In this document: piece by piece, positions 3,281 through 57,112 of the stretch
Layout: each line of letters starts with the position of its first letter
Numbering within the stretch: position 1 is the first letter of the stretch
Assembly: GCA_018970465.1 (NCBI GenBank)
Contig: JAGWWI010000002.1
Span: 4,517 to 68,516, forward strand
Direction of reading: 5' to 3'
Length of the DNA stretch: 64,000 nt
From: Patescibacteria group bacterium
GTDB lineage: Bacteria > Patescibacteriota > Minisyncoccia > Phycocordibacterales > Phycocordibacteraceae
Program-made: the position numbers and the translations under genes
Notes under the pieces: model-generated
The model's database searches: none
The model's input: only the letters and a program-made list of their open reading frames with translations
Told to the model about the DNA's origin: nothing

Positions 3281-4054
3281 TTATGGGAGCGGCGGGAGCG
3301 GGATGAGCGGCGTCACCTGCATCGTTGTTGGAACGCCAGAGAAAGCATTATTCCAGGTAAAAATTGCCGTTGCCGTGCCTTGCGGAGGTATGAGCGGAAG
3401 CACGGTCTGTGACGCGGCGATGACGTCGTTATTCGCGTCGCGTACGACTACGATCGCCTGCACGTTCGTAAGCGGCTTGATGTCCCCGTTTGCAAGGACC
3501 GCAGCGATACGGGGCATGTCCGGCGATCCACCCTGCGTCACGCTCGACACGCCCGGTATGACGCGCGTATCTTTCGTCATGGTGAACCACCGCAACGATG
3601 ACGAGTCGATGGTAAGAAACGCCGTCGCTACCGCCTGATTCCCCGACACAACGCCGGGGAGAAAGACTGGCACCGTCGCTCCCGGCGGCAGGTCAAGCGT
3701 ACCGGAGATCTCCTGCAGAGGCGTGTGGTCGGCGCTATAGAGCGCTACGTGGTACGAAACATTCTCCGCCGCAACAGTGATGTTTTTATTCTCGACTGAC
3801 GCGATAATGTCCGTGCGACCCGCGGCGTTGGTAAGCACCTTGGTGAAGAGCACGGTCGGCGCTTGCTCAAGCGCCGTACAGAGGTACGGACACGGCCCGC
3901 CGCAATCGACACCCTCTTCGCCCTGGTTTTGGATACCATCGGTACACGACGGCGCTTTATAAAAAACCGAGGAGAAAATAATCACCAGCGCCACCACGAC
4001 AACTGCGCCAATGATGGAAAGAATGGTGAATCTTCGCCGTGCTGCCCAAGACAT
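3281..4054 (-). CDS. Hypothetical membrane-anchored protein
   Basis: ORF 3281..4126. Its first 24 codons overlap the downstream tRNA. The internal 'MSWAARRRFTILSIIGAVVVVALVIIF' (TM anchor) is the plausible start. Confidence 0.5.
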   Translation of the reverse strand: MSWAARRRFTILSIIGAVVVVALVIIFSSVFYKAPSCTDGIQNQGEEGVDCGGPCPYLCTALEQAPTVLFTKVLTNAAGRTDIIASVENKNITVAAENVSYHVALYSADHTPLQEISGTLDLPPGATVPVFLPGVVSGNQAVATAFLTIDSSSLRWFTMTKDTRVIPGVSSVTQGGSPDMPRIAAVLANGDIKPLTNVQAIVVVRDANNDVIAASQTVLPLIPPQGTATAIFTWNNAFSGVPTTMQVTPLIPLPPLP

Positions 4055-4099
4055 GAAAGTAAGTATAACAAAAAGCCCGCGCGAAGCGCGGGCGAGAAA

Positions 4100-4177
4100 T
4101 GGTCGGGGTGAGTGGATTTGAACCACTGACCCTCTGCCGATGGGACAGATGCTCTACCGGACTGAGCTACACCCACG
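4100..4177 (-). tRNA. tRNA with CAU anticodon (Met or Ile2 type); 3' CCA encoded; acceptor stem irregular
   Basis: Reverse complement: 'cgtgggtg ta gctc agtccggta gagc a tctgt cccatcg gcaga gggtc agtgg ttcaaat ccact caccccg a cca'. D, anticodon and T arms are canonical. The 5' acceptor strand has one extra nucleotide relative to the 3' strand. Confidence 0.6.
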
Positions 4178-4205
4178 ATAAAGAACAAAGAAATTTCAAG
4201 TATTC

Positions 4206-4325
4206 GGTTCTGGCGGCTAGCTACTCTCCCCATCTGTAACGATGAGTACCATCGCCGCTAGGAGGCTTGACTGCCGAGTTCGGAATGAGATCGGGTATGA
4301 CCCTCCCGCCAAACCACCAGAACCG
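4206..4325 (-). rRNA. rrf: 5S rRNA
   Basis: The plus strand reads as the reverse complement of a 5S rRNA. It has complementary helix-I ends (ggttctggcgg ... ccaccagaacc), 'ccgatctcattccgaactcggcagtcaagc' (loop C) and 'gggagagtagctagccgccag'. Confidence 0.85.
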
Positions 4326-4695
4326 AACACTCGAAGTGTCGGCATACGAAACGCATAGGATAAGAATGTGTGAACAAATGATTGTGCTATACAGAGTTCC
4401 GCACGAGAGACTGGACATATTAGTACTCCTCGACTCCGCGCCTTACGGCGCTTCCATCTAGAGCCTATCAACGTGGTCATCTCCCACGAGTCTCATAACG
4501 ATTCCTAATCTTGGAGCACGTTTCCCGCTTATATGCTTTCAGCGGTTATCGCAACCCGACATAGCTACCCAGCGGTGCCCTTGGCAGGACAGCTGGTAGA
4601 CCAGAGGTCAGTTCATCCCGGTCCTCTCGTACTAGGGACGACCCTCCTCAAGAATCAACGCCTGTAGTAGATAGGAGACCAACCTGTCTCACGCA

Positions 4696-5003
4696 TCTAC
4701 GTTTGCTCGCATTACTGCGAGGATCGGACTGTAACACCACCCGATCTGGGTGACCAACATTCAGTCTCTAGAGGCGCCGAGATTTTTACTTCTCCGCTTC
4801 CTTCGGTGTTGCCCTCTCGTACACAACGAGTTCGGGTTCCACCGATATCAGTTGATTTGCTAACGTACGTATTCCTACGTACGACCGCCGTGAGTATGTC
4901 TTCGCACACTGCGTCTCCACGCAGCTAACAATTGCCTCGTGGATTCAGACCGTTCAATCACCGACACTCTGTCAGTTGCTGAACGGTCTGAACCCAGCTC
5001 GCG
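4696..5003 (-). mobile_element. ORF-less intron-like insertion (about 308 nt) in 23S domain V, near E. coli positions ~2593-2596
   Basis: Exon sequence 'gaccaacctgtctcacg' (4679-4695) and 'gtctgaacccagctcgcgtacc' (from about 5004) are contiguous in a normal 23S (GGGUUUAGAACGUCGUGAGACAG). About 308 nt lies between them. The insert ends in G before the 3' exon, as in group I introns. Class not established. Confidence 0.55.
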
Positions 5004-5714
5004 TACCTTTTTAATTGGCGAACAGCCAAACGCTTGGGAGCTTCTCCACCCCCGCGCTAAGGTGAGCCGACATCGAGGTGCCGAACTCCGCCGTCGCTAT
5101 GGACGCTTGGGCGGAACTAGCCTGTTATCCCCAGGGTAACTTTTATCCGTTGAGCTTCCTCCGCGTCTAAGGCGGAAGGTCGGATCACTATGCTCTGCTT
5201 TCGCATCTGCTCGGGATGTCCCCCTTGCAGTTAAGCCAGCTTATGCCATTACACTATCGGCACGGTTTCCATTCGCGCCTAGCTGACCTTAATAGGCTCC
5301 TCCGTTACTTTTTAGGAGGATAGCGCCCCACCAAAACTACCTGCCACGCACGGTCCCGATAGGGTTCCGCCCTACCGGTTAGGCACTGCCGGATGTAAGA
5401 GTGGTATTTCACTGACGAGTCCACGGCACCCAAGAGCGCCGCTTCAACCTCTCCCACCTATGCTACGCATACATCCCGCAGGGCCAATACGAAGCTGTAG
5501 TAAAGCTCCTGGGGTCTTTTCGTCTAACTACAGGTATCCGGCATCTTCACCGGAAGTGCATTTTCACCGAGCGAATCCTCGAGACAGCTGCCCAGTCATT
5601 ACGCCATTCGTGCACGTCGGAATTTACCCGACAAGGAATTGCGCTCAGGTATTCCTCGAACCTGGACCATATCTTCACCGCCGAAACGGGCACGACGTAT
5701 GGCCTCTCATGTGA

Positions 5715-6610
5715 GTCGTGTTTAGGATTAACCGGTACATTGCTATACCGGAAGGTAGCTTCGAATAGCGCAACCTATTTACCGACTATAATGGGTCCCA
5801 ATCCTCCCACGTTCGACTGTCGTCGAGCGTGAGACCTTAGGACGATTCACTTTGTTACTCTGCCGCGAAGCGGCAACTCTCACGATCGCCCGTGAGTTCG
5901 GACTATATCATCTGAGCTCTCGCCCAGTTCAGCGTGTAGTCTCTGAGGATTCCCAACCCCATCGCCAACGATATGCTCGATGGTATATTTGCGCTTCCTG
6001 CCGCGACCTTCGTTCAGAAGTTCGCGAAGTTGCGCTATCTCTTCGAGCCCTTGCCGTGTCAGATGCTTCTTCTGAAACACCTGGTGCGCGATGTCCTTGA
6101 AGAGTTTGAAGTTCTTCTTGGATTTAGCGGACAAGAATCCGAACCGCTCGAAGAACGGAATGATCCGCTCTTCTATGGATCGCGGATTCGCCACGACGTA
6201 GTACCAGACGCCATCGCGTCGCGCTTGCAGTCGACCGCACCCAAGGTGCTGCTTCATAAGCGCGAGCACGGTCTTGTCGCGTTGCGCGACATTGAACGTT
6301 AGTACCGTCTGCCACCCGATCGTATGATCAGGCCGCTGACGGAAGGAAACGTTGAAGCTCCCTTCTCCGTCTACGAATCCTGCGATGTACCACCCTATAT
6401 GGGGCGGTATGTCGTTGATGTTTTTCATGTTGGGTCTTTCCTGCGGATTGTCTGCACTCGCGCATTGTTACAGGGAGTCTTTCATCCCGAGTAGCGCGGA
6501 GTCCTAACCAGAGTTTCCCGCATTTAGCTGAATTTTATAACTACGATCGTCCATAGTTATCGCCGACATTCACCGGGGCATATACAGTCCAGCACATACC
6601 CGAAAGCATG
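5715..6610 (-). mobile_element. Intron (probable group I) in 23S domain IV, near E. coli positions ~1860-1880, carrying a LAGLIDADG ORF
   Basis: Exon matches resume at about 5617-5710 ('...acctggaccatatcttcaccgccgaaacgggcac' = region around E. coli 1880-1905) and at about 6615-6660 ('cttaacctaccggcatcggtcaggcgtcac' = around 1830-1850). About 0.9 kb of non-rRNA sequence lies between. Boundaries are approximate. Confidence 0.65.
5880..6428 (-). CDS. LAGLIDADG homing endonuclease (single-motif, I-CreI-like), intron-encoded
   Basis: 182 aa. 'IGWYIAGFVDGEGSFNVSF' is a LAGLIDADG motif. Same strand as, and inside, the 23S gene. Confidence 0.85.
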   Translation of the reverse strand: MKNINDIPPHIGWYIAGFVDGEGSFNVSFRQRPDHTIGWQTVLTFNVAQRDKTVLALMKQHLGCGRLQARRDGVWYYVVANPRSIEERIIPFFERFGFLSAKSKKNFKLFKDIAHQVFQKKHLTRQGLEEIAQLRELLNEGRGRKRKYTIEHIVGDGVGNPQRLHAELGESSDDIVRTHGRS

Positions 6611-8687
6611 TACCGCCCGTACTTAACCTACCGGCATCGGTCAGGCGTCACCCCCTATACTTCCTCTTACGAGTTCGCAGGGAGCTGTGTTTTTGGTAAA
6701 CAGTTGCCAGGCAATCTTTCGCTGCGGCCCCGCCGCCCTTGCGGGCGAAGGGGCAGGCCTTATCGCGAACTTACGGCCGCTTGTTTGCCGAGTTCCTTGA
6801 GGATCTCTCACTCGTTCGTCTTGGGCTACTCGCCCTGACCACCTGTGTCGGTTTGCGGTACGGTCGTTCGCAAGTTGAATGCTAGGAGGTTTTCTTGGAA
6901 CCGCGCTCGCTGCCCTCTCTCCCCCCGTAGGAGGAAATTGCGTCGCGGCTCGCGCTAGTGCGTGGCGGATTTGCCTACCACGCGCGCTCACCGCGCCGAC
7001 CCAAATCCAATAATGGGCGGCAGCTACAGCAGTCCGTCACTCCTTCGCCTTACGAACGGTCACGGAATATTGACCGTGTGTCCATCGGGTGCGGCTCTCG
7101 CCATCCCCTTAGGCCCGACTAACCCGGAGATGATCACCATAGCTCCGGAAACCTTGGTCTTTCGACGTGCGGGGTTCTCACCCGCATTGTGGTTACTTGT
7201 ACCTGCATTCTCACTTCTGAACGCTCCACCGCGGGTCACCCCTGCGGCTTCATCGCGAACAGAACGCTCTCCTACCGCTTGCCGCGTACACGTACGCGGC
7301 AAACCCGCAGTTTCGGCACGACGCTTAACCCCGATCATCTTCGGCGCACGGACTCTCGACGAGTGAGCTGTTACGCTTTCTTTGAATGGTGGCTGCTTCT
7401 AAGCCAACATCCTCGCTGTCAGTGAATCCGCACTTCCTTGTGATGTACTGAGCGTCGATTTTGGGGCCTTAACTGGCGATCTAGGCTCTTCCCTTCTCGA
7501 TCGATGGAGCTTCGCCCCCACCTTCTAACTGCCGCCCGAGCAGCGGGTATTCGGAGTTTGATAGGGACCACGAGATTTCTCCCTGTTGGCCCCTTCCAGT
7601 GCTCTACCCCCCACTGCGCATATGGCGACGCCAGCCCAAAAGCTGTTTCGGAGAGAACCAGCTATTCCCAGGTTCGATTAGCTTTTCACTCCTTACCACA
7701 AGTCATCCCAACGCGTTGTACGACGAACGGGTTCGGGCCTCCAGCTGCCTTTCGGCAACCTTCACCCTGCTCATGGCAAGCTCACCTGGCTTCGGGTCGT
7801 ATCGACGCCGCAGACGCGCTATTAACGCTCGCTTTCGCTTAGCCTCCGGGGCGTAACCCCTTAGACACGCGACGTAGATACACTCGCAGGCTCATTCTTC
7901 AATAGGCACGCCGTCACCCTCCCTTGCGGGAACGGGCTCCGACCCTTTGTAAGTGCACGGTTTCAGTTCTATTTCACTCCCCTCTCGGGGTGCTTTTCAC
8001 CTTTCCCTCACGGTACTAGTTCGCTATCGGTCATAGAGCGTATGTAGCCTTACCGGTTAGTTCCGGCAGATTCATTCGAGCTATTCATGTCTCGAACTAC
8101 TCAAGAATATGGACAAAAGAGTCGTCAGCATTTCGCCTACGGGGCCATTACCCTCTGGGGCGCTGCTTCCCAGCAGCTTCGGCTATGATGACGATTGGTA
8201 ACTCTTCTCTAGCAAGCTAGACGTCCATACCTTACAACCCCGTCCTCCGAAGAGTACGGTTTGGGCTTCTCCCTTTTCGCTCGCCGCTACTTGGGGAATG
8301 ACGTGGAATGGGTCTCCATACGCACAAGCATGTGCGCACGGAGACACATTCCTATTGTTCTCTTTTCCTCCGGGTACTGAGATGTTTCACTTCCCCGGGT
8401 TCGCTTCTCGTGGACATGACTCCACGGATCTCTACTAGAAGTAGAGGGGTTTCCCCATTCGGACATCTCCGGATCACAGGCTAATAGCCGCCTCCCCGAA
8501 GCTTATCGCAGGCTAATCACGTCCTTCATCGCCGCTCTAGGCCAAGGCATCCACCGTGCACCCTTCATGCTCCCGTACGGAAGCCTGAATACCACAATCG
8601 TTTTTGCACTTTGACCTCCCTCATTTCTGAGGGAATTTCAATTACCTTTCGTATTCGTGTATCAAAGAGCCCGTGCCCTCTAACGAA

Positions 8688-8709
8688 CGAACCGCCCCGA
8701 GGGGCGGTT
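8688..8709 (-). terminator. Rho-independent terminator downstream of paralog A (hairpin gaaccgcccc-gagg-ggcggttc)
   Basis: Perfect 9-bp stem with a GAGG loop, then a T-rich tract on the minus strand. Lies between the 8851..9513 gene and the 23S 5' region. Confidence 0.55.
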
Positions 8710-8850
8710 CGTTCGTCACGAACGCGTGGCCTAGCGGCCTCCCCCCGAAATCAGGTTTTTGGTGTTCGTAGACACGTAGAAGGGAGTGTACAGGAGGGGC
8801 GAAAGCGCGTCAACTAGGACCGTACTCTAGCCTTATCGGAGCCCTGGGGC

Positions 8851-9513
8851 CTATTGGACAACGATGCTTTTGGTAGCGATTACCTGATCTCCGCTCAGCA
8901 CCTTCAATACGTATGTGTTAGGGGAGAAGTAGCGATGGCTCGTAGCAACGTCCCCTTCCGTCATAACGGGAAAGGGATCGCGCGGAGATCTGTCTCCGTA
9001 ATCGACCGAGAGCGTACTGCCGCTGCCTCTGACCTCAAACCAGATGCTCTCACCCACGAGGAGAGGCGAGGATGTTGCGACGTCAATCGACGCTTCCGTG
9101 ATCCCGCCCGAAACCGTAACGGTCGCAGGAGAACCAACACCGATGCTCGGCGGCGGGATACAGTCCCCGTACGCAGGAGCCTGACACTCCCAAGCTTTGG
9201 ACCAGGTCATGCCAGCCTGAAATGTTCCAGAAATGCGATACGTGTGCCGGGCGTGTATAGAACACATGAATAAGAAACAGGTCGAAGACGCGACCGCATC
9301 GATGCTTCCGTCTCCAAAGTACGCTCGGTAGGTCCCGCCACGCGAGGCCAGCGCCAGGGTCGAGAGGCGCACCTCAAGAGGCGCGCTGCCGCGAACGGGC
9401 GTAGCAACATCCATTCGCCCCGTCCGCCACCACATGCCACCTGCGAGCGCAGCGAGCGCGAGAACGACGAGGCCGATCAGGATGAGCGAGGCGAAGCCGC
9501 GAGCAGAGCGCAT
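8851..9513 (-). CDS. Anchored or secreted hypothetical protein, tandem paralog A
   Basis: 220 aa. N-terminus 'MRSARGFASLILIGLVVLALAAL' (basic, then G-F, then about 20 hydrophobic residues). Shares this N-terminus with the next gene. Confidence 0.7.
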   Translation of the reverse strand: MRSARGFASLILIGLVVLALAALAGGMWWRTGRMDVATPVRGSAPLEVRLSTLALASRGGTYRAYFGDGSIDAVASSTCFLFMCSIHARHTYRISGTFQAGMTWSKAWECQAPAYGDCIPPPSIGVGSPATVTVSGGITEASIDVATSSPLLVGESIWFEVRGSGSTLSVDYGDRSPRDPFPVMTEGDVATSHRYFSPNTYVLKVLSGDQVIATKSIVVQ

Positions 9514-9516
9514 GAG

Positions 9517-10668
9517 TTAGTTGGTGAAGCGGAAGGATTGGATGATCGGCTCGAGCTTCGCATTTATATACGCTTGCCCGGCATCTCCGTTAACCGTTGC
9601 GTGCGCGAGTATACCGCTATATTGGAACATGAATATATCGAGCTGATAACAAAGGCCGTTCCGTACCGTCGCGTACGTGCTATTACCGACGTCTCCGTAG
9701 GGAATGCTCGTTTGCGTAAAGGCAATATCATTTATGGTAGTTGCTGCGGTGCCAAGGGTTTTGGTACAGCCGTTCTCTCCCTGCAACTTGTCCAATGGAA
9801 CGACCGATGCAAGCAAATATCCCTCGAGATTATCGGCGCCATCCACGACGTTGAAGTATGCCTCCGGAGGATTCTCGATGGTGGGCACCGAACCATACCC
9901 GGTAGTCTGCGCCGGCACGTCAGACGGATACTGGAGGCTGAACCCGTACTGCGCGTTAGCGTAGGTCTCGAGGCCGCTCACTACTGGACCCGTTCCGGCT
10001 GCCTTGCATGTAGAATCATACGTGCGAGTCGAGCCGTCGACCGAGACGGACAGGTTCGAGGACGACAACTTCGCGGTAGCCGGATCGGCTCCGAGAATGA
10101 CGGAACCGTTGCAATAGACGTTGTGCCTGTCCTTGGCATAAGGCGAGAAGTCGAGGTTCGGATTGAGCTCGACGAAGCTCGCGGCGTCGCCACTGACGAC
10201 AGGCGAAGAATCGACGAACGCGGAGTTTTCGTCCGCACTGAAGGAAAACTTCGTGATCCCGGTATCGTTACGGAAGAAAAGGACGGGCCCTGGTTTGGCG
10301 TACCACAGGAGAGAAAAGGTCGCCGGATCGGCACCCGCTATGACTACGCCGCCTCGATATACGTGACTCTTGTCTTTCCCGAAGCACAGGCCATAGATTG
10401 TGAGGTCTTGAAAGGTCGCCGCATCCGCCCCGGCGACCTTCTGGTATGCGCCGGAGCGGGGTTGAGTATCCATATAAATGGCGTCGCCATTTTTGTAGTA
10501 ACAACCGCTATCGGGCCCTACGCGCGCCGGGTCCACCGCAACGAAAGACCCGGCAGGCTCTCCGTTATTTCTGGCCGCCCGCCATGCCCTGCCCCCTGCG
10601 AATGCAACGACGACTAACACGGCCAGGCCGATCAGGACGAGCGAAGCGAACCCGCGAGCAGAGCGCAT
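9517..10668 (-). CDS. Anchored or secreted hypothetical protein, tandem paralog B
   Basis: 383 aa. N-terminus 'MRSARGFASLVLIGLAVLVVVAF'. C-terminal module '...YANAQYGFSLQYPSD...LEPIIQSFRFTN', shared with paralog C. Confidence 0.75.
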   Translation of the reverse strand: MRSARGFASLVLIGLAVLVVVAFAGGRAWRAARNNGEPAGSFVAVDPARVGPDSGCYYKNGDAIYMDTQPRSGAYQKVAGADAATFQDLTIYGLCFGKDKSHVYRGGVVIAGADPATFSLLWYAKPGPVLFFRNDTGITKFSFSADENSAFVDSSPVVSGDAASFVELNPNLDFSPYAKDRHNVYCNGSVILGADPATAKLSSSNLSVSVDGSTRTYDSTCKAAGTGPVVSGLETYANAQYGFSLQYPSDVPAQTTGYGSVPTIENPPEAYFNVVDGADNLEGYLLASVVPLDKLQGENGCTKTLGTAATTINDIAFTQTSIPYGDVGNSTYATVRNGLCYQLDIFMFQYSGILAHATVNGDAGQAYINAKLEPIIQSFRFTN

Positions 10669-10671
10669 GAG

Positions 10672-11688
10672 TTAGTTGGTGAAGCGGAAGGACTGGGCGA
10701 TCTGGTCAAGCTTGCCGAGAAGTACGGCTTCGGTGGCAGCCGACCAGCGTGGGTCAGTGCAACCACTATTTACGCATGCGCTCGGGAAACTGGTCAGGGC
10801 GATATCGTAACAATATCCGTTATGAACGGTTTTATATTCGCGCATGATGCCCTCCGCACTCACGCCTGCCTCATATCTGCTCTCGTCGAACTTGTTGAAG
10901 GTCATGCCGCCGATAGTCACCTGCGGCGTGCCGACGGGCCCTCCCAGACATTCGCCGGGTCCTGATTCGACCGTAACCGTTAAGTACCCCTCGGTTTGCA
11001 CTTGGTCCGTTCGGAGCTGGACAGAGACTACCGGATCGATGGCGAAAGGTTTGGAGGCGAAGGCCGAGGTGGCGAGCAGCGCGTCGGGTGGATACTCGAA
11101 GCTGAATCCGTACTGCGCGTTGGTATAGGTCTGCGTCTTTGTGGCACCTGCGACCGTGAGCGTTGCGCTCGTCTCTGTGTTATTAGGCCCGAACACATTG
11201 AGCGGATATGAGCCAGGCGGAAGCGTCCTGAAGTACGGACCGTCTACGAAAGAGACGGACCATCGCGCACCAGCCTGCACACTCGTGTCCGCGCTACCCG
11301 CGAGCTCGGTGCCACCTACGCTTTTGATCTGCACGTTGATGTCTCCCGACACCAAGGCCGTCCCGCTTATGGTTGGGTTCCCTGATGCTGACGTAAGCGA
11401 ACTCTGGTCGATAGCCACGCTCGGTCCTGCCGCTGATGATGGCGCCGTAGTCGTCTGATTGTTTGGAGCCGTTGTTGCGGTTGCGTTGGAGGTACTGGTC
11501 GCAACAGCGTCGGTATGGGTTGGCAGAGTAGCTTGTCGGGTGCCGTACCACCCCGCCCCAATCGCGGCGAGCGCGAGAACGACGAGGCCGATCACGATAA
11601 GCGAGGCGAAGCCCTGTGCGGGGATGCGGGACAGGCCGCGAGCGAGGGTATGCATATGCATCGATGATAGCACCCGAGCAAGCTTCAT
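10672..11688 (-). CDS. Anchored or secreted hypothetical protein, tandem paralog C
   Basis: 338 aa. '...IPAQGFASLIVIGLVVLALAAI', a Thr-rich linker 'TSTSNATATTAPNNQTTTAPSS', and C-terminal '...YTNAQYGFSFEYPPD...LDQIAQSFRFTN'. The start may be one of the internal Met residues (MHMHTL...). Confidence 0.7.
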   Translation of the reverse strand: MKLARVLSSMHMHTLARGLSRIPAQGFASLIVIGLVVLALAAIGAGWYGTRQATLPTHTDAVATSTSNATATTAPNNQTTTAPSSAAGPSVAIDQSSLTSASGNPTISGTALVSGDINVQIKSVGGTELAGSADTSVQAGARWSVSFVDGPYFRTLPPGSYPLNVFGPNNTETSATLTVAGATKTQTYTNAQYGFSFEYPPDALLATSAFASKPFAIDPVVSVQLRTDQVQTEGYLTVTVESGPGECLGGPVGTPQVTIGGMTFNKFDESRYEAGVSAEGIMREYKTVHNGYCYDIALTSFPSACVNSGCTDPRWSAATEAVLLGKLDQIAQSFRFTN

Positions 11689-21965: not shown

Positions 21966-22001
21966 TAGACTGAAAGTACGTAAACAATAAACAGCTCGCG
22001 T

Positions 22002-22826
22002 ATGTACTGTAGCAACTGCGGAAGAAAAAATGACCCTGACGCGAATTTTTGTGAAAAATGCGGCGCGGCTCTTACCAAGGAATCCGTTCCTGTCCTCCGA
22101 GAGTCTGCTCCGGTTACGAGCACCGCTCCCTCGACTCAATCGGAACCTGTCGCCGCACCTCCGACGGGAAAAGGTGTCATTAAGTGCGGCAATTGCGGGT
22201 ACATCGGCCCAGGCGAACCGGCACGGAGCCTGTGGGCGAAAATTCTTGCGTGGATATGCGTGATCTTTGCTCCGCTCATCACTATCCTCTACTTCGTCGC
22301 GACCCACAAATATCGCTGTCCGAAGTGCCACTCCACGTTTCTAGGAATACGAAACAAGAACGGGGAATTCATCCAAGGCCAGAACGGCGTTAGCAGAGCC
22401 GTTACCATAATCATTCTCGTGTTCGTCGGATTATTTGTTATCGGTGTTCTGGCTGCAGTGGTGCTGGCTTCGCTCAACACAGCCCGTGCGAAAAGCAGGG
22501 ACGCCGCTATCGAATCTCGTCTGGACAGTATCCGTGCGGAAGCGGAAGTGTACTATGGGGGCGCCGGCGATAACAGCTACGGGAACGGGACCGACTCTTG
22601 CGCGGACGGCATGTTTGCCGCCGATGCGACCATCGCAAGCGAGTTGCAAGACATTTCGAGCCTCAATCCAAACGGCGAGATGTCGTGCGCCGTTTCAACC
22701 GACGGGAGCGCCTATGCTCTACAAGCGCAGCTCACCTCTGACTCGGGCACGTATTGGTGTGTCGACTCGGCTGGCCTATCTAAAGAAGAGACTTCTTCGT
22801 TGGGGGCGGGCACACGTTGTCCGTAG
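22002..22826 (+). CDS. Zinc-ribbon, TM, then type IV pilin-like ectodomain protein
   Basis: N-terminal 'MYCSNCGRKNDPDANFCEKCGA' (double Cys pair). A second Cys pair 'KCGNCG...RCPKCHS' flanks a TM helix. Then 'VIGVLAAVVLASLNTARAKSRDAAIESRLDSIRAEAEVYYGG' resembles a mature pilin alpha-helix, and a C-terminal region carries 4 Cys. Region of lower G+C. Confidence 0.65.
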   Translation: MYCSNCGRKNDPDANFCEKCGAALTKESVPVLRESAPVTSTAPSTQSEPVAAPPTGKGVIKCGNCGYIGPGEPARSLWAKILAWICVIFAPLITILYFVATHKYRCPKCHSTFLGIRNKNGEFIQGQNGVSRAVTIIILVFVGLFVIGVLAAVVLASLNTARAKSRDAAIESRLDSIRAEAEVYYGGAGDNSYGNGTDSCADGMFAADATIASELQDISSLNPNGEMSCAVSTDGSAYALQAQLTSDSGTYWCVDSAGLSKEETSSLGAGTRCP

Positions 22827-22843
22827 GCAAACCTCCACCTCGT

Positions 22844-24529
22844 ATGTACTGCAAAATATGCGGACATAGAATTGAGCGGGGTAAAAAGTTTTGTAAAAAT
22901 TGTGGCTCATCAGTCCCGAGCAGCTTTTTCACCGCCCTATTAGGCGCGGTGCCCCTTGGCACCGCGCGTCGCCTGGACATGCGCAACCCTTGGATCTGGC
23001 TCGGGATAGGGGTGGCTACCGCAAGCTTCGGTGCCATACTCCTTGTATGGCCTCTGCATCCGCACGGGAAAAGTCCGACTGTCATCGTTCCCCAGAATCA
23101 ATTGGCTGTGGTCGATATAAACTGCGATACAGGATACGGCGGGTCGGGAACCGTCTTCACGAGTGACGGCACCATATTGACGAACAACCATGTCATTCAG
23201 GGAGCAAAGGAGTGCGAAGTCACCATCCCGGACCCTGCGACGGGACAGATCAGTAAGATTTATAAAGCGGTCCCTAGTATCGTCCCGAAGCTCAGCAAGA
23301 AGTATGATGTTGCGACCTTAAAGATCGATGCCGCATACACCGATAAGAACGGGAAGACGTGGGGGACCTACCCCGCTACGTTTACGGCATTCGTTTCTCC
23401 CAGCACTTGCGATCCCACTCAACCTTCAAAGCTCGGTGACTCTGTTCGCATTTACGGCTATCCCGTCACGAGCGGCGGCTACAATCTGACTGTCACGGAC
23501 GGCCTCTTGAGCAGCTTTTCTGATAATGGATATATCCTAACTTCTGCAAAAGTAGACAGCGGCAATTCCGGAGGTCTGGCTGTCGATCAAGACGGCTGCT
23601 GGCTGGGGATACCCTCGGCAGTTGAAGCGGGGAATTATCAAAATCTAGGAGTGATTATCCCGGGAGAAGTTGTCGCCGCAAACTTCCTGAATGCCGTTGC
23701 CGCCAAGGCAGACCCCGCAGCAATTAAGTCGCCCTTGCGCGCAGCTAACGCTGAATCCGCTGCAACCCCTCAGCTATCTAACGATCAGATATGCCAAAGC
23801 GGCTTTGGCCAAAATAGTGAATGGTCTGGGCAATTGGACAGTAGCGGCAAACCAACCTGCAGATGTAAAGACGGATATTCATGGGATGCAAGCGGTAATG
23901 CGTGCGCGCTTCAATCTGACCTGGAACAGTGGTGCGAAAGTAACTATGGCACTGGTAGTTATTCGTCCCCCCAGAACGGCAAGGCTACTTGTGGCTGTGA
24001 CACAGGGTACACTTGGAACGCGGGCCAGACAGCATGCGTTCCGCAAGAGACGAATGACGAACAGTGCCAGGCCGATTATGGAATCGGGAGCTACTGGACT
24101 GGCACAACTAATGCCCAAGGAGGCCCAACATGTGGCTGCCAATCGGGCTATGTTTGGAACACCGCTCAAACTGAGTGTGTCGCGCAGCCGAGTTGCCCTT
24201 TATACTCAAGTTATGACGCCTCTGCCGGACAATGCGAATGTTGGTCTGGCTATGTAACCACTGCGACGGGTTGCGAATCGGCCTTGACGTACTGCGAAAA
24301 TAAGGAGGGTTTTGGAGCCACTTATGATGCGGCCACGAATTCGTGCGAATGCGAGCCTGGCTATATGTTTGACGGGAGCACGTGCCAGTCAGGATATTCG
24401 TACTGCTCTGCACGATGGGGCGTAGGGGCTGAATATGATTACAATACAAATGGGTGCGCCTGTGGATATGGATACACGGTCAACAGCTCGGGTACCGGGT
24501 GCCAATCCATATACTCAACGTATTACTAA
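22844..24529 (+). CDS. Zinc-ribbon, TM, then trypsin-like serine protease with C-terminal Cys-rich repeats
   Basis: 'MYCKICGHRIERGKKFCKNCG' plus a TM helix. Protease triad context 'TNNHVIQG', 'DVATLKID', 'DSGNSGGLAV'. Six or more repeats of about 21 aa of the type 'PTCxCxxGYxWNxxxxxCVxQ'. ORF track start 22817; the Met at 22844 is preferred. Confidence 0.8.
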   Translation: MYCKICGHRIERGKKFCKNCGSSVPSSFFTALLGAVPLGTARRLDMRNPWIWLGIGVATASFGAILLVWPLHPHGKSPTVIVPQNQLAVVDINCDTGYGGSGTVFTSDGTILTNNHVIQGAKECEVTIPDPATGQISKIYKAVPSIVPKLSKKYDVATLKIDAAYTDKNGKTWGTYPATFTAFVSPSTCDPTQPSKLGDSVRIYGYPVTSGGYNLTVTDGLLSSFSDNGYILTSAKVDSGNSGGLAVDQDGCWLGIPSAVEAGNYQNLGVIIPGEVVAANFLNAVAAKADPAAIKSPLRAANAESAATPQLSNDQICQSGFGQNSEWSGQLDSSGKPTCRCKDGYSWDASGNACALQSDLEQWCESNYGTGSYSSPQNGKATCGCDTGYTWNAGQTACVPQETNDEQCQADYGIGSYWTGTTNAQGGPTCGCQSGYVWNTAQTECVAQPSCPLYSSYDASAGQCECWSGYVTTATGCESALTYCENKEGFGATYDAATNSCECEPGYMFDGSTCQSGYSYCSARWGVGAEYDYNTNGCACGYGYTVNSSGTGCQSIYSTYY

Positions 24530-28352: not shown

Positions 28353-29201
28353 CTAGCCGCGCGGCGACGCGGCCAGCCCGAAGAGGCGCGTGGCGTTCGC
28401 GACCGTAGCTTGGCGGACGGTCTCGAGGGGCTCGTTGCGGATCTCGGCGAGCTTCGCGACGACGTCTTCGACGGCCAGAGGGTCGTTGCGCGCCCCGCGT
28501 CCGCGCGAGGTCGGCGGGACATAGGGCGCGTCGGTCTCGGCGAGGAGGGACGCGAGCGGCGCGGCGCCGATGGCGGCGTCGTACTCGCGAGCGAAGGTGA
28601 CGACCGCCGTGTAGGAGACGGTCAAGCCGAGCGCGACCAAGGCGCGCATCTCCTCCTCGCCCCCGACGAAGAAGTGGATATCGCCGCGGAGGTTCGGATA
28701 CTGCTCCTTCTCCTCCGTGAGGATCGCGATGAGGTCGTGATATGCGTCGCGCGTCTTCTTCGACGGCCGCGCGTGGATGATCAAGGCCTTATCGAGCTCG
28801 GCGGCAAGCGCGATCTGGGAGCGCAGTAGGGTTTTCTGCTTCTCCTTCACCTCCTCGTTCACCTCTTCAGGACGAAAATAGTCCAAGCCGCACTCCCCTA
28901 TCGCAACGACCTTTCCGCCGGAGGCGGATCCGCCTCCGGCGGACGCGCTCGCGGCGAGCGCGCGATATGCCGCCGGGTCGAAGGCCTCCTCTGATTCATG
29001 ATTGGGGTGGAGACCGATCGCCGCGTAGAGATGCTCGTGGCGCTCGGCGAGCGCGACCGCCGCCTGCGAGCTCACGTAGTCGCAGCCGACGACCACCCCG
29101 GCGACCCCGCGCTCCTCCATCCGCGCAATCACCTCCTCGCGATCCTCAGCAAAGGCCGGGAACTGCAGGTGGCAGTGCGCGTCGAAATACTTGGTCGTCA
29201 T
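28353..29201 (-). CDS. tatD: TatD-family metal-dependent hydrolase/DNase carrying a GGGSASGG insert
   Basis: 'KYFDAHCHLQF', 'IGLHPNH', 'VVAIGECGLDYF', 'LIIHAR', 'GDIHFFVGG', 'LLAETDAPYVPP'. Confidence 0.85.
   Translation of the reverse strand: MTTKYFDAHCHLQFPAFAEDREEVIARMEERGVAGVVVGCDYVSSQAAVALAERHEHLYAAIGLHPNHESEEAFDPAAYRALAASASAGGGSASGGKVVAIGECGLDYFRPEEVNEEVKEKQKTLLRSQIALAAELDKALIIHARPSKKTRDAYHDLIAILTEEKEQYPNLRGDIHFFVGGEEEMRALVALGLTVSYTAVVTFAREYDAAIGAAPLASLLAETDAPYVPPTSRGRGARNDPLAVEDVVAKLAEIRNEPLETVRQATVANATRLFGLAASPRG
28915..28942. repeat. 28-bp perfect palindrome ccgccggaggcggatccgcctccggcgg (copy 1, inside tatD)
   Basis: Self-complementary and centred on GGATCC. Translated in frame (minus) as GGGSASGG within TatD. 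Confidence 0.9.
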
Positions 29202-37077: not shown

Positions 37078-40000
37078 TCAAGACGCGTCGCGGACGAGGT
37101 CGAAGCGCGCCTGGCCGGTCGAGAGCTCGACGGCGTACTTCCCCTCCGGCGCCATCTGCGCATGCGCCTTGTCGGCGGGCGCGAGGCCTTCGCTCTTCCG
37201 CGCCTCCGCGACCGCACGCGCGAGTTCGCGCTCGTCGCCCTCTTTGATGAGCTCGGGAGTAAGCGCGGTGTCGAGCGCGAGCGCTTCGCCCTCCACGACC
37301 TCTTTCACATTCACCTCCTCGGCGAGCACCGCTGCGAGCTCCGCAGACAACACCTCAGGAATCGTGAGCTTCGCGAGCGGCTGACGCACTTTCATCCCCG
37401 CTTTTTGACGGAGCATGAGGGCCTCCGAGGCGAGCGAGCGCACCTGCGCCATCTGCTCGACCAGCGCGTCGTCTACCCCCTGCGCAGTCGGCCACGCAGC
37501 GAGGTGCACGCTCACGGGATCATTCTCGCCACGCACGCGGCGATACACATCCTCGGCGAGAAACGGCGCCAAGGGCGCGAAGAGGCGCGCAGAAACGTTG
37601 AGCGTCTCGCGCAAGGTCTCGAGCGCGGCGGCGTCGCCGCCGCGTGCCCGCTCGCGAACGCGCCGCACATACCACTGCGAGAGATCTTCGAAGAGCGCGT
37701 CGACGGTGCGCGAGGCGGTGAAGAGATCGTAGGCGTCGAACGCGGCCGTTGCCTCGCGCACGGCAGCGGCCGTGCGCGCCGCCATCCAGCGGTCGATGAC
37801 CTGCTTCTCGTCCGCGTTCTCTGCCGCATCCTGTCCGCCGGAGGCGGATCCGCCTCCGGTGGAGAAGAGTTCATAGAATTTCGCGCTGTTGTCGAGCCAG
37901 TTGAGGGCCTTCGCCGCTTCGCGGACGGTGCGCTCGTCGTAATTCTTGGAGTCGCCCGCGCCCGTGACGCTGTACATCCAGAGCCGCAAGGCGTCGACGC
38001 CCCACTTCTCGATCTCGACCCACGGGTCGACGACGTTGCCCTTCGACTTGCTCATCTTCGCCCCCTCCGCATCGAGGAGGTGGCCGAGCGAGATCACGTT
38101 CTCGTAGGAGCGGCCGCGGCCCATCAGGACGCCGACGGCAAGCAGCGTGTAGAACCACCCGCGCGTCTGGTCGATCGCCTCGCTGATATAGTCGGCCGGG
38201 TACGCGACGCGCGCGAGAAACGCGTCGAGCGATTCGCCTCCGGCGCGCTCCTTCGCGCTCTGCGCGAACGGCATCGCGCCCGAGTCGAACCACACGTCCA
38301 TCACCTCCGGCACCCGCCGGAGCTCCGTGCCGTTATCCGAAAGGAGCACCACGTCGTCGACATACGGCCGGTGCAGGTCGAGCTCGAAATCGGCGTTATG
38401 CGGCAAGGAGACGAACGGGAGCTCGCGCGGCACACCGTGCGGCACCACGCCCACAGTCGCGTCGACGATCTTCGCAGAAGCGGCGGCATCTGCGCCCTCG
38501 ACGACCGGGAGCAGGGATTCGAACGCGACGCCGTGCGTCACGATGAGGACGCCCTCGCCTGCGCGCGCCTGCTCGACTTCGTAGAGGAACGCGCCGAATC
38601 GCCGCTTCGCATCGAGGTAGCTCTCGCCGCCCGGGAAGGGCGCGTCATACGCGAGCGTCTTGCGGAACGCGAGGAACTCGTCGTACGCCTCCCGCCCGCC
38701 GAAGGAGCCGAAGTTGAGCTCCCGCAGCCGCTCGTCGTAGCGGATCGCTGCCGGGTCGAGCCCGAGCTTCTCGGCGACAAGCTCCGCAGTCTCGCGGGTG
38801 CGCAGCAGAGGCGAAGCGTATATCGCCGTGATCCCCTTGCCAGCGAGCGCCTCCGCGCCCGCCGCGACCTGCCCGCGCCCCTTCTCGGTGAGCCGGTTCG
38901 TCGTGTCGCCGTCGCTGTCGAGGAGGCCGCGCACATTCCCCTCCGACTCGCCGTGGCGCATCACGAAGTAGCGGTTGCCGCTCTTCTTGGTGCGCTTCTT
39001 CAACTCGTCGATCGAGCCCACGACGATGCGCTCGCTGCCGTCCGTGCTCTGCCACACCGGCAACGGCGTGCCCCAGTAGCGCTCGCGCGAGATCGCCCAA
39101 TCCTTCACCCCCGAGAGCCACTCACCCATCCGCCCGTCGCGGATGTACGCCGGTTCCCAGTGGATCTGCTTGTTCTCGCCGACGAGCGTGTCGCGCACAT
39201 CCTGCATGCGGATGTACCAGCTGTCGCGCGCGTAGTAGATGAGCCGCGTCTTGCAGCGCCAGCAGAAGGGGTAGGTGTGCGTGTACGTCTGCTTCGAAAA
39301 TACGCGCTCGCGGCTCTGGAGGTCTTTGAGAATCTCCACCGCCGTCTCCTCGTTGACGACGGACTTGCCCTCGAGGAATCCCGTGCCGGGGATGAACACG
39401 CCCTCCGGATTGACGAGATGCACCTTCGGGAGCCCGACCTTGGTGCCGAGGTCGAAGTCCTCCTGGCCGTACATGACCGCTGTGTGGACAACGCCAGTGC
39501 CCTCCTCGGTCGTGACGAAGTCTGCGGCGTACACCTTGAACGCGTTGGCGAACTTCGCCTTCTCGCTCTCGGGCGCGAGCGCTTTGGCGTACGGATACAG
39601 CGGTTCGTATTCGAGACCGACTAGATCAGAGGCCCCGCAGATATGAGTAATTTCTGAATCTTCCTTTCCGAGCCCTTTGAAAAACGCAGCAGATGCGATG
39701 AGGGAACTATCTCCATCCGCCCACGCAACGTATCTCTCAGTCTCTTTCAAAGGATTGTTCGCGTCGAGAACCGCGAGCGCCACGTTCCCCGGCAGAGTCC
39801 ACGGCGTCGTCGTCCACGCAAGGAGGTACACGTCGCCATCGAGACCTAGTTTCTCTTTTGCGTTGGTGACCTTGAACTTCGCCGTCACCGTAAGGTCCTT
39901 CACGTCCGCGTATCCTTGCGCGAGCTCGTGCGACGAGAGCGCGGTGCCGTCGTGCGGGCACCAGGGCACGACGCGGTAATCCTTATAGAGCCGGCCGTCG

Positions 40001-40551
40001 TCTGCCACATGCTTCACGATGTGCCAGAGCACCTCCATGTAGGGCACGTCGAACGTGAAGTACGCCTTCGACGCGTCCACCCAGTAGCCGATGCGCTTGG
40101 TGAAGCGCGCCCAGAGGTCGATATAGGTGAGCACGCTCTCCCGGCACTTCTGGTTGAACGCGGCGATGCCGTACGCCTCGATATCTTTCTTACTCGAGAA
40201 GCCGAGCTGCTTCTCGACCTCGATCTCGACGGGGAGCCCGTGCGTGTCCCAGCCGGCGCGGCGCGCGACGCGGTAGCCGCGCATCGTCTTATAGCGCGGG
40301 ATCGCGTCCTTGAAGGCCCTCGACTCGAGGTGGTGGATGCCCGGCTTCCCGTTCGCGGTCGGCGGCCCTTCGTAGAAGGTGAACTCGCCGAGCGGCGCGT
40401 CTTTGTCCAAAGACTGCTCGAAGACGCGCTCGCGCTCCCAAAACGCGAGTATCTCCTCCTCCTTGGCCGCCGTAGCGGATTTCTCCGTGGTGACGGCGCG
40501 CTTCGCAGCATCCGACTTCTCCCCTTCTGACATGACAAAAATATAGGCCAT
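37078..40551 (-). CDS. ileS: Isoleucyl-tRNA synthetase with an inserted histidine-phosphatase (PGAM-like) domain and a GGGSASGG insert
   Basis: '[13 protein letters not shown]', '[29 protein letters not shown]', '[14 protein letters not shown]', '[12 protein letters not shown]'. Inserted block '[13 protein letters not shown]...[17 protein letters not shown]...VLIVTHGV' (RHG / TH motifs). ORF track 37078..41019 includes about 155 codons of Arg/Ser-rich read-through upstream of the plausible starts [12 protein letters not shown]. Confidence 0.9.
37835..37862. repeat. 28-bp palindrome copy 2 (ccgccggaggcggatccgcctccggtgg), inside ileS
   Basis: 27 of 28 positions identical to the tatD copy. Encodes [10 protein letters not shown] in frame within IleRS. 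Confidence 0.9.
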
Positions 40552-56244: not shown

Positions 56245-57112
56245 GCTGCTATTGGGCCGCCTTCAACGCCAAAAGCTGAAAAAGCGGCACGGAAGAAGTC
56301 CGCTCGTTATACCGCCAAGCGAACTCGTTCAGGTAAGCCTGGAGGTGCTGGGGCGAAACAAAAGCGTAAGTCCCCCTGACGGACTTCTTAAACTGGCCCC
56401 AGAAGCCCTCAATGGTGTTCGTGTGCTCGCCCTTCCACAGCATGTGGTGTTTGCCGTGCTTCACATTCCTGTGCGTGTAGCCGTATGCGGAGTATGAGAG
56501 CTTGTCGTATCCCCTGTATTCGTCGGTGACGACCTTTGAACCCCTGACGACATTCTCCTTGATGAAGGGGAGGACGATAGCCGCTTGTCTGTTAGGGACA
56601 GCCTTCACCTTGATCCGACCCTTTCTCTCAACGGCCCCGAGGACAGCCTGCTTATTCTTGAACTTGGTCGCGTGAGTGCCGCCCTTGCCGTAGAACGTCT
56701 CGTCGGCCTCCACTTCACCCGTAAGTGGGTTCTTGTCTTGCTCCATGAGCTTCCTGATCTGGTGGCCCATCCTCCACGCGGTCTTATAGGTCACGCCAGT
56801 CTGCCTCTGTATTTCCATAGCCGACACCCCGTTCTTAGAGGTGGCAAAGAGGAAGATCACATGGAACCAAATCGTGAGGGAGGTGGAGGACTTCTCAAAT
56901 ATAGTCCCAGCGAGAGGGTGGATATGGTGGCCTTTATTGTTGGCATACGCCTTTCGCCCAGCAATCTTGTGGTATCCCGAGGCAGTCGGGTACTTAGTCT
57001 TGAAGATATGGTCTAGGCAGTGAATGTCAGTCGGGAACTCCGCCTTTAGAGACTTAATCGTGTACTTCATATACTCCTAGTCTATACTAGGGGCTACTTG
57101 GCGTCAAGGGAT
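56245..57112 (-). mobile_element. IS1595-family insertion sequence (ISXO2-like), about 0.87 kb
   Basis: The transposase ORF fills the element. Imperfect terminal inverted repeats 'ccttcaacgccaa' (about 56262-56274) and 'ttggcgtcaagg' (about 57098-57109). AT-rich relative to the genome. Confidence 0.7.
56249..57070 (-). CDS. IS1595-family transposase (ISXO2-like DDE)
   Basis: 273 aa. N-terminal zinc-ribbon 'CLDHI...', then '...ISAMEIQRQTGVTYKTAWRMGHQIR...EVEADETFYGKGG...KVVTDEYRGYDKL...HRNVKHGKHHMLWKGEHTNTIEGFWGQFK'. Confidence 0.9.
   Translation of the reverse strand: MKYTIKSLKAEFPTDIHCLDHIFKTKYPTASGYHKIAGRKAYANNKGHHIHPLAGTIFEKSSTSLTIWFHVIFLFATSKNGVSAMEIQRQTGVTYKTAWRMGHQIRKLMEQDKNPLTGEVEADETFYGKGGTHATKFKNKQAVLGAVERKGRIKVKAVPNRQAAIVLPFIKENVVRGSKVVTDEYRGYDKLSYSAYGYTHRNVKHGKHHMLWKGEHTNTIEGFWGQFKKSVRGTYAFVSPQHLQAYLNEFAWRYNERTSSVPLFQLLALKAAQ

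Follow-up and report, generated by a model that had tools for sequence, protein, structure and literature searches.

The window analysed here, a 64,000-nucleotide stretch of contig JAGWWI010000002.1 (positions 4,517 to 68,516 of the forward strand, assembly GCA_018970465.1) from a Patescibacteria group bacterium, contains two copies of a short palindromic DNA element, one inside tatD and the other inside ileS (Table 1). The element is carried in an identical phase by its two minus-strand host genes, and in TatD and IleRS alike each copy adds ten residues, S[A/T]GGGSASGG, which correspond to residues 87-96 of TatD and directly follow ...KFYELF (Phe codon TTC) in IleRS. The tatD copy consists of two 15-nt units, TCCGCC-GGA-GGCGGA and then TCCGCC-TCC-GGCGGA, and its single-stranded form folds as one 13-bp hairpin (-18.7 kcal/mol, z = -6.3). 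The original prediction, which had been made from the sequence of the window, located both palindromes and described their unrelated flanks, shared strand and shared frame, all of which are confirmed. The tatD palindrome is perfect as it had claimed but extends over 30 rather than 28 bp; the near-identity of the copies likewise holds, with 27 of 28 matching positions recast as 29 of 30, and the supposed 8-residue insert GGGSASGG is a 10-residue one. No match to the palindrome was obtained in 100 shuffles of the sequence, and the two copies are the sole perfect palindromes longer than 14 bp within the window. An all-against-all BLAST of flanking sequences returned no pair from the window, the flanks of the two copies being unrelated. 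Both copies have the loops GGA/TCC, a combination that is rare in the family described below, and this shared uncommon feature suggests recent spread inside this genome.

Table 1. Coordinates of the element copies, their host genes and other features of the window.
Feature	Position in window	Strand	Description
Element copy 1	28914-28943		Perfect 30-bp palindrome TCCGCCGGAGGCGGATCCGCCTCCGGCGGA, inside tatD
Element copy 2	37834-37863		TCCGCCGGAGGCGGATCCGCCTCCGGTGGA, 29/30 identical to copy 1, inside ileS
tatD	28353-29201	-	TatD-family hydrolase, 282 amino acids (aa), Pfam PF01026
ileS	37078-40533	-	Isoleucyl-tRNA synthetase, 1151 aa, from gene call and Pfam domains; start and length computed
Histidine-phosphatase domain	38512-38973	-	PF00300 (His_Phos_1), inserted in IleRS
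DDE transposase	56249-57070	-	IS1595 family (PF12762), no clear terminal inverted repeats
Low-GC stretch	54-58 kb		GC 0.55-0.58
Low-GC islands	4001-10000, 22001-24000		GC 0.53-0.57, against ~0.64 elsewhere
DKNYY-family protein	9517-10668	-	

The ileS reading frame is part of a 1313-aa open reading frame (ORF), which is an upstream extension of the 1151-aa gene. Comparison with orthologues indicates how the extra residues came to be present. An exact 10-residue gap faces the TatD insert in all 22 of the closest orthologues (64-75% identity), the IleRS insert is absent in 49 relatives, and an insert of the same family in AlaRS is absent, again as an exact 10-aa gap, in 117 of 120 relatives; the presence and absence that the original prediction had proposed to compare does vary. 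Judged from these alignments, the element is an insertion and not an ancient motif. In the AlphaFold model of TatD, residues 87-96 link helix 76-85 to strand 98-104 as a coil with a predicted local distance difference test (pLDDT) score below 50, immediately ahead of the conserved VAIGECGLD strand, and solved TatD structures such as PDB 1zzm are gapped at this position. According to the model, the TatD insert is a disordered loop. The IleRS insert is located within a variable-length loop between KFYELF and VIDRWM. In the TatD orthologues P0042 and P0004 (L245 1001-1840 and L246 1001-1840; L numbers denote fetched loci), and also in P0031 and P0047, a different 10-residue insert, P[DS]SAKAT[KT][DG]R, was observed after ...SKKT. 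Its DNA starts with TCCGCCAAGGC, which matches the first 11 bases of a unit, and a third TatD position may thus have held a copy that has since decayed. Further short inserts, e.g. FSDDRIKMGIPRKGQ, are present in other TatD orthologues.

The window copies belong to a family whose unit is 30 bp long and comprises two abutting, mutually inverted 15-nt mini-hairpins, [TCCGCC-nnn-GGCGGA]x2, with 6-bp stems and triloops. The stems are conserved and the triloops variable across the family; in the loop-free metagenome scan, RRA predominates in loop 1 and TYY in loop 2. Complementary loops turn the entire element into a single perfect palindrome, but the GGA/TCC combination is present in 3 of 125 copies among the metagenome matches listed with loops free, and variant copies fold as two small hairpins (about -12 kcal/mol) instead of one. 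The perfect palindrome was therefore abandoned as the defining feature, and the perfect 28-mer regarded as the entity in the original prediction is replaced by a 30-bp mini-hairpin doublet with variable loops. Stem changes are compensated inside the same unit, as in TCAGCC..GGCTGA, TCTGCC..GGCAGA, TCCTCC..GGAGGA and TCGGCC..GGCCGA. Hairpin doublets numbered 109 against 0 in shuffles, and the doublet itself is the unit: 237 doublets and no longer arrays were found, together with about 65 "single" units that are mostly half-decayed doublets. Terminal inverted repeats are thus present in the form of a unit followed by its inverse, and the element is a palindrome within the 20-40 bp range built as an inverted doublet. 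Its 30 nt are a multiple of three and are free of stop codons in all six frames. At two unrelated loci (L062 4815 and L077 1412), another 15-nt mini-hairpin, CAAGGTCGAACCTTG, abuts the element.

The GGATCC core, which had been considered notable for its BamHI-type sequence, is incidental, because GGCGGA abuts TCCGCC at the unit junction. Although GGATCC seemed depleted in the window relative to dinucleotide shuffles (9 vs 25), this depletion vanishes under a higher-order Markov expectation (9 vs 13.4), and several other palindromes are more depleted. The restriction-modification idea was accordingly rejected, and nothing was found in support of the suggestion that the palindrome is the footprint of a restriction or transposition event.

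The distribution of the family was examined by a genome scan, which covered one genome per species with the exact central 20-mer, and by a metagenome scan with exact stems and free loops; the exact core or stem requirement of both scans biases comparisons of stem conservation. The exact 20-mer core was detected at at least 118 genome loci, against about one expected by chance, and the loop-free pattern at at least 120 metagenome loci. At about 102 of the 118 listed genome loci, the outer five bases, which the search leaves unconstrained, are TCCGC / GCGGA or differ at one position, and the sequence beyond them is unrelated. The other 16 core matches (Streptomyces, Corallococcus, Paenibacillus and similar) are devoid of outer arms and look like chance matches or ordinary terminators. 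About 73 of the 102 loci are labelled Candidate Phyla Radiation (CPR)/Patescibacteria, including Saccharibacteria, Kaiser-, Doudna-, Pacei-, Nomura-, Adler-, Falkow-, Uhr-, Sung-, Harrison-, Yanofsky-, Campbell- and Peribacteria, and about 19 are labelled Kiritimatiellia, Verrucomicrobiota, Lentisphaeria, Elusimicrobia, Omnitrophota and a few others, with about 10 lacking a phylum label; the GC content of the genome loci ranges from 0.37 to 0.65. Element-bearing assemblies originate from many independent projects and include megabase contigs. In several genomes, more than one exact-core copy is present, at unrelated sites, with at least five in one 868-kb Doudnabacteria contig (CAWINB010000004.1), and about 22 extra copies were found in 0.94 Mb of fetched loci. 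These counts suggest a density of roughly 20-30 copies per Mb; the window has 2 per 64 kb, and the overall figure is about one per 30-45 kb. With hundreds of copies in unrelated genes, the original view of a dispersed small palindromic repeat that is not a product of gene duplication is upheld, and coincidence is likewise dismissed.

Several candidate carriers and larger contexts were considered. Merely 2 matches were found among 2.9 million viral contigs, which gives no indication of a phage vector, and a plasmid origin was rejected, as partial chance matches alone were obtained, in high-GC Streptomyces and Rhizobium plasmids. No Rfam match reached any gathering score, so that a known RNA family was dismissed, and a larger composite repeat was likewise discarded, since BLAST of the flanks against one another recovered only pairs of orthologous genes and a handful of unrelated hairpin repeats in the neighbourhood. 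Numerous contigs terminate no more than about 100 bp from a copy (L018 4, L036 117, L193 29, L191 37, L194 39 and L167 53), and in L107 the element and its flank are duplicated on the two sides of a scaffold gap of 100 N; assembly seems to be broken or misled by the repeat.

The family is not mainly extragenic, as 132 of 220 copies with canonical stems are internal to long ORFs. These include 117 copies in the phase that reads SAxGGSAxGG (phase 0), 12 in phase 2 and 3 in the Arg-rich phase (phase 1), while 36 of the 220 are positioned within 25 residues of an ORF end and 52 have no long ORF. Among the many unrelated essential hosts, those confirmed by Pfam are PheT (two copies in one gene), a release factor, GatA, GroEL, EngB, RluD, YchF, RecR, TatD (at a different site) and AtpA, and DnaE, RecG, L23, KsgA, RtcA and AlaRS were recognised by eye from their sequences. 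The peptide SA.GGSA.GG is specified by the canonical hairpin codons in 220 occurrences, by the same codons with one synonymous change in 10, and by no others, although background codon use predicts the exact hairpin codon set with a frequency of about 5e-5. Because the peptide is never encoded by other codons, the conserved entity is the DNA or RNA hairpin and not the peptide. In the PheT of L003 (Campbellbacteria; host ORF around 5845), one of the two copies is read as SARGGSAFGG near the N-terminus, and the protein also has an inserted NlpC/P60 domain. Non-coding copies are often located within about 100 nt of tRNA genes. Interrupted tRNA genes and an analogy with tRNA introns were rejected, since deletion of the element in silico restored no tRNA at any junction. 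In L213, a 16S rRNA gene has an intervening sequence that harbours a copy (6044-6073); a group I intron (5582-5997) is 47 nt away, and a second small-subunit rRNA fragment and a group II intron domain are nearby.

The flanks of the copies reveal a target preference. T is present at position -2 in 82% of copies and is also found at -1 and -3, with mirror-image A's on the other side. Phe precedes 56 of the 117 in-frame copies (10.9-fold enriched) and Lys follows 62 (7-fold). Since insert-free orthologues already possess F↓K or F↓Q at the insertion point (arrow), the preferred target is TTY↓RAA, with insertion at its centre and without duplication, and this target explains the three peptides seen, including F-SAGGG... 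Flanking direct repeats are not enriched: for k from 1 to 5, the numbers among 89 copies are 7, 3, 4, 0 and 0. No target duplication was found in the alignments of TatD and AlaRS orthologues (exact 10-codon gap) or at the empty hairpin site of Kiritimatiellia. Target preference alone does not account for the phase bias: TTYRAA motifs in long ORFs are distributed over phases 0, 2 and 1 as 919:798:228, so that phases 0 and 2 are nearly equally available, whereas in-ORF copies are distributed as 117:12:3. This difference points to selection for the linker-like reading and supports the earlier idea that the insert is tolerated as a flexible linker.

Pre-existing host hairpins also receive the element, in the case of some non-coding copies, with 9 copies in the loops of hairpins with stems of at least 7 bp against 1.8 expected. 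In partial tRNA copies, it occupies the T-loop or the anticodon loop (GGTT↓CAAATCC and CTTTT↓AAA); such partial copies, derived from T-arms of tRNA-Pro and from the 5' half of tRNA-Lys, stand beside the intact tRNA genes (L113 6088-6330 and L090 5968-6030). A second repeat family in Kiritimatiellia and related bacteria, composed of REP (repetitive extragenic palindromic)-like hairpins (AT)GTAGAGCCGG...CCGGCTCTAC, hosts the element in its loop (L027 1621, L221 5295 and L193 29), and an empty form of this hairpin is present in L166 at about 10800-10860.

Occupancy of individual sites is discordant with phylogeny in both IleRS and AlaRS. The IleRS of L115 has the insert at the same site as the window ileS, but is 81% identical to the insert-free P0122 and 70% identical to the insert-bearing window protein. 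Similarly, the insert-bearing AlaRS of L206 is 82% identical to the insert-free P0241 and 69% identical to the insert-bearing L196, and among 122 AlaRS sequences (the 120 closest matches together with L206 and L196) three non-sister lineages have an insert at the same FF↓ site, one of them partly deleted. Such a pattern would arise if a hot spot gained the insert repeatedly, or else if copies were lost precisely or replaced laterally. In orthologous-site pairs from the exact-stem scans, which are biased in this respect, 29-30 of 30 element bases are identical despite a flanking third-codon identity of 36-54%; in pairs from the loop-free scan, where exact stems were also required, the loops differ and the stems are intact. 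From such comparisons, the element at orthologous sites can be old. The PF00300 domain inserted in the window IleRS is also present in the IleRS of L115, and the fragments P0144 and P0229 carry PF00300 as well.

Based on these observations, the repeat is probably a very small non-autonomous mobile (selfish) palindromic element, the mobility of which is suggested by presence and absence among relatives and by multiple copies at unrelated sites. The element occupies the centre of the short A/T-rich palindromic site TTY↓RAA, most often at a Phe↓Lys codon junction, without duplication of any base. Its short length of 30 nt, the absence of stop codons from all six frames and the coding of a linker in the commonest phase may allow it to be tolerated and to persist within genes; in that phase, the flexible Ser/Ala/Gly decapeptide would be placed in surface loops. 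The other two phases are depleted of copies, presumably via selection. After insertion, the loops may drift, mostly by transitions, with the stems remaining intact through selection for the hairpin, recognition by a mobilising factor or hairpin-templated self-correction. The window palindromes would be recent copies of one subfamily with the loops GGA/TCC. The lack of target duplication and the use of hairpins and loops as targets suggest that the chemistry could be a single-strand, hairpin-dependent DNA transposition or proceed through an RNA intermediate. A broader statement can be put forward with less confidence, namely that this may be a hitherto unrecognised, exceptionally small 30-bp mobile double-hairpin that is distributed over most Patescibacteria classes and several further uncultivated phyla, inserts at TTY↓RAA without target duplication in a manner matching no known transposon family, and has repeatedly remodelled surface loops of core proteins, among them GroEL, DnaE, AtpA and several aminoacyl-tRNA synthetases.

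Several points weigh against a mobile element. No transposase or other mobilising gene is linked to it, and phmmer detected no IS200/IS605-like TnpA among 5969 ORFs in 1.8 Mb, in a search of low power with an IS608 TnpA query. In 1.75 Mb, no full-length element bounded by half-sites and no pair of half-sites enclosing an ORF was found, and a 30-bp unit is, to our knowledge, below the size of any transposon end pair. The near-invariance of the stems across distant lineages is partly an effect of exact-match scanning; exact loss of copies, or homologous recombination that replaces them laterally, could also generate the patchy same-site occurrence, and neither population-level polymorphism nor excision was observed in the assemblies examined. 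The window does encode a transposase of the IS1595 family within a stretch of low GC content (Table 1), and it was rejected as the mobiliser, as its ends and flanks are unrelated to the palindrome. The two low-GC islands of the window, one of which includes the gene for a DKNYY-family protein, may be acquired DNA.

A serious rival, although an unlikely one, is that the palindromes are functional cis-elements, such as a protein or RNA binding site, a DNA-uptake signal or a structural signal in mRNA or DNA, which have been spread or kept by selection or by biased uptake and recombination and not by transposition. The stem sequence, beyond mere pairing, is conserved over very different lineages with locus GC contents of 0.37-0.65, the stems persist at orthologous sites where the loops diverge, and lateral allele replacement would fit the patchy same-site occurrence. 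Furthermore, parS sites and uptake sequences offer examples of short intragenic palindromes, and CPR bacteria rely on taking up DNA. However, DNA uptake sequences are found roughly once per kb, whereas the density here is as low as about one per 30-45 kb; the copies arise as clean 30-bp insertions and not by point mutation, they are spread over unrelated genes without any positional pattern, no Rfam family is matched, and the requirement for exact matches in the scans accounts for part of the stem conservation. Somewhat less probable still is derivation from a larger transposon with the ends TCCGCCnnAGGCGGA and its complement, of which the 30-mer would be the excision footprint or a solo terminal inverted-repeat pair. 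Such an origin would be in keeping with the architecture of one unit followed by its inverse, with the absence of target duplication and with the repeated use of the same sites, but no longer element lies between isolated half-sites in 1.75 Mb, the "single" units being mostly decayed doublets, and identical footprints at hundreds of sites would require very frequent insertion and excision although no intact element was seen. Furthermore, no transposase family is known to leave footprints of 15 bp per end.

The codon data effectively refute an independent origin at each site, whether by convergent selection of Gly/Ser linkers or by local template-switch (quasi-palindrome) mutation, and this explanation is highly improbable. 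The insert is indeed a plausible flexible loop linker, and hairpin-templated correction could yield the compensated stem changes; nevertheless, the hairpin codons are fixed in 220 of 230 occurrences, with the other 10 each deviating at one synonymous position, non-coding DNA and the other reading frames contain copies as well, and template switching, which copies local sequence, cannot produce the identical 24 stem bases everywhere. The least credible of the alternatives is a sequencing or assembly artefact or contamination with a synthetic BamHI linker. GGGSASGG has been published as an engineered laboratory linker in seven papers, all genuine copies come from metagenome assemblies, and several contigs end at the element. 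On the other hand, the copies derive from many unrelated projects and assemblers and from megabase-scale contigs, the 30 bp always interrupt an otherwise colinear gene cleanly and in frame, and the target motif is consistent. Natural variation in the form of variable loops, compensated stems and partial deletions is also evident, and the independence of the assemblies together with this variation rules out an adapter or synthetic-linker artefact.

If the family is mobile, selfish palindromes inside protein genes, known mainly from Rickettsia and mitochondria, would be extended to CPR bacteria in a far smaller form. The size of the element would then define a lower bound for mobile inserts, and a target motif used without duplication would point to an undiscovered mobilisation mechanism, with the conservation of the stems across phyla implying a conserved recognition machinery. 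Ten-residue indels in highly conserved proteins can mislead CPR marker-gene alignments and phylogenies, and the presence or absence of copies could be usable as a fine-scale population or lineage marker. No published description of the sequence, the peptide or a CPR palindromic element was retrieved by a full-text search, outside of which lies the subscription-only literature; the peptide was encountered there solely as a synthetic linker.

The original prediction had proposed a MITE (miniature inverted-repeat transposable element)-like or REP-like element, a comparison that stands for the inverted repeats and the doublet palindrome but fails for target duplication, the 50-500 bp size range, the GTAG/CGTC tag and extragenic location. 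REPs are 20-40 bp imperfect palindromes that frequently form inverted doublets, with a GTAG or CGTC end tag, and are extragenic, present in hundreds of copies and accompanied by a gene for a REP-associated tyrosine transposase (RAYT, a Y1 HUH transposase) (PMC3733652). The present element resembles REPs and their hairpin-forming doublets (REPINs) in being a multi-copy, hairpin-forming palindrome of 20-40 bp with inverted doublets, but its consensus ttTCCGCC...GGCGGAaa has no GTAG/CGTC tag, it is mainly intragenic with about 20-30 copies per Mb, and no RAYT was seen in a weak search. Bacterial MITEs such as Correia, ERIC and Nezha are 50-500 bp in length, generate target-site duplications and have ends that match known insertion sequences (IS). 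With these, the element shares its non-autonomous nature, the inverted repeats and the possibility of in-frame fusions, in contrast to its 30-bp size, the absence of target-site duplication and the lack of a detected IS-end match. Unlike DNA uptake sequences, which occur about once per kb, it is represented by 2 copies per 64 kb in the window and by about 22 extra copies per 0.94 Mb.

The original prediction had also stated that no described element has such a property, but two precedents exist. According to PMC2800124, the mitochondrial hairpin elements, namely the double-hairpin elements of Allomyces and the GC clusters of yeast, are short and G+C-rich, contain one or two adjacent stem-loops and are dispersed, occasionally in rRNA or protein genes; they are found in organelles of fungi, sponges and algae and are mostly intergenic. 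The same paper describes the Allomyces elements as lacking flanking duplications, with mobility inferred from presence or absence among relatives and an RNA intermediate proposed. These are the closest structural precedent, sharing two adjacent G+C-rich stem-loops, dispersal and the absence of flanking duplication, but they differ from the present element in sequence, whereas the latter is found in bacterial contigs with housekeeping genes, and more than half of its copies are intragenic and in one reading phase. The Rickettsia palindromic elements, as outlined in PMC10969869 (citing Ogata et al. 2000), are inserted in frame in many unrelated, often essential genes, are about 100-150 bp long and form some ten families restricted to Rickettsia; in this account, the frame stays open, the inserts are thought to be located at protein surfaces, and no transposase is known. 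They were compared by description, with no sequence relationship claimed. Since they share the in-frame insertion of a palindrome into many unrelated protein genes, they represent the closest functional precedent, from which the present element is distinguished by its length of 30 bp, its double mini-hairpin, its TTY↓RAA target and its occurrence in Patescibacteria and other phyla.

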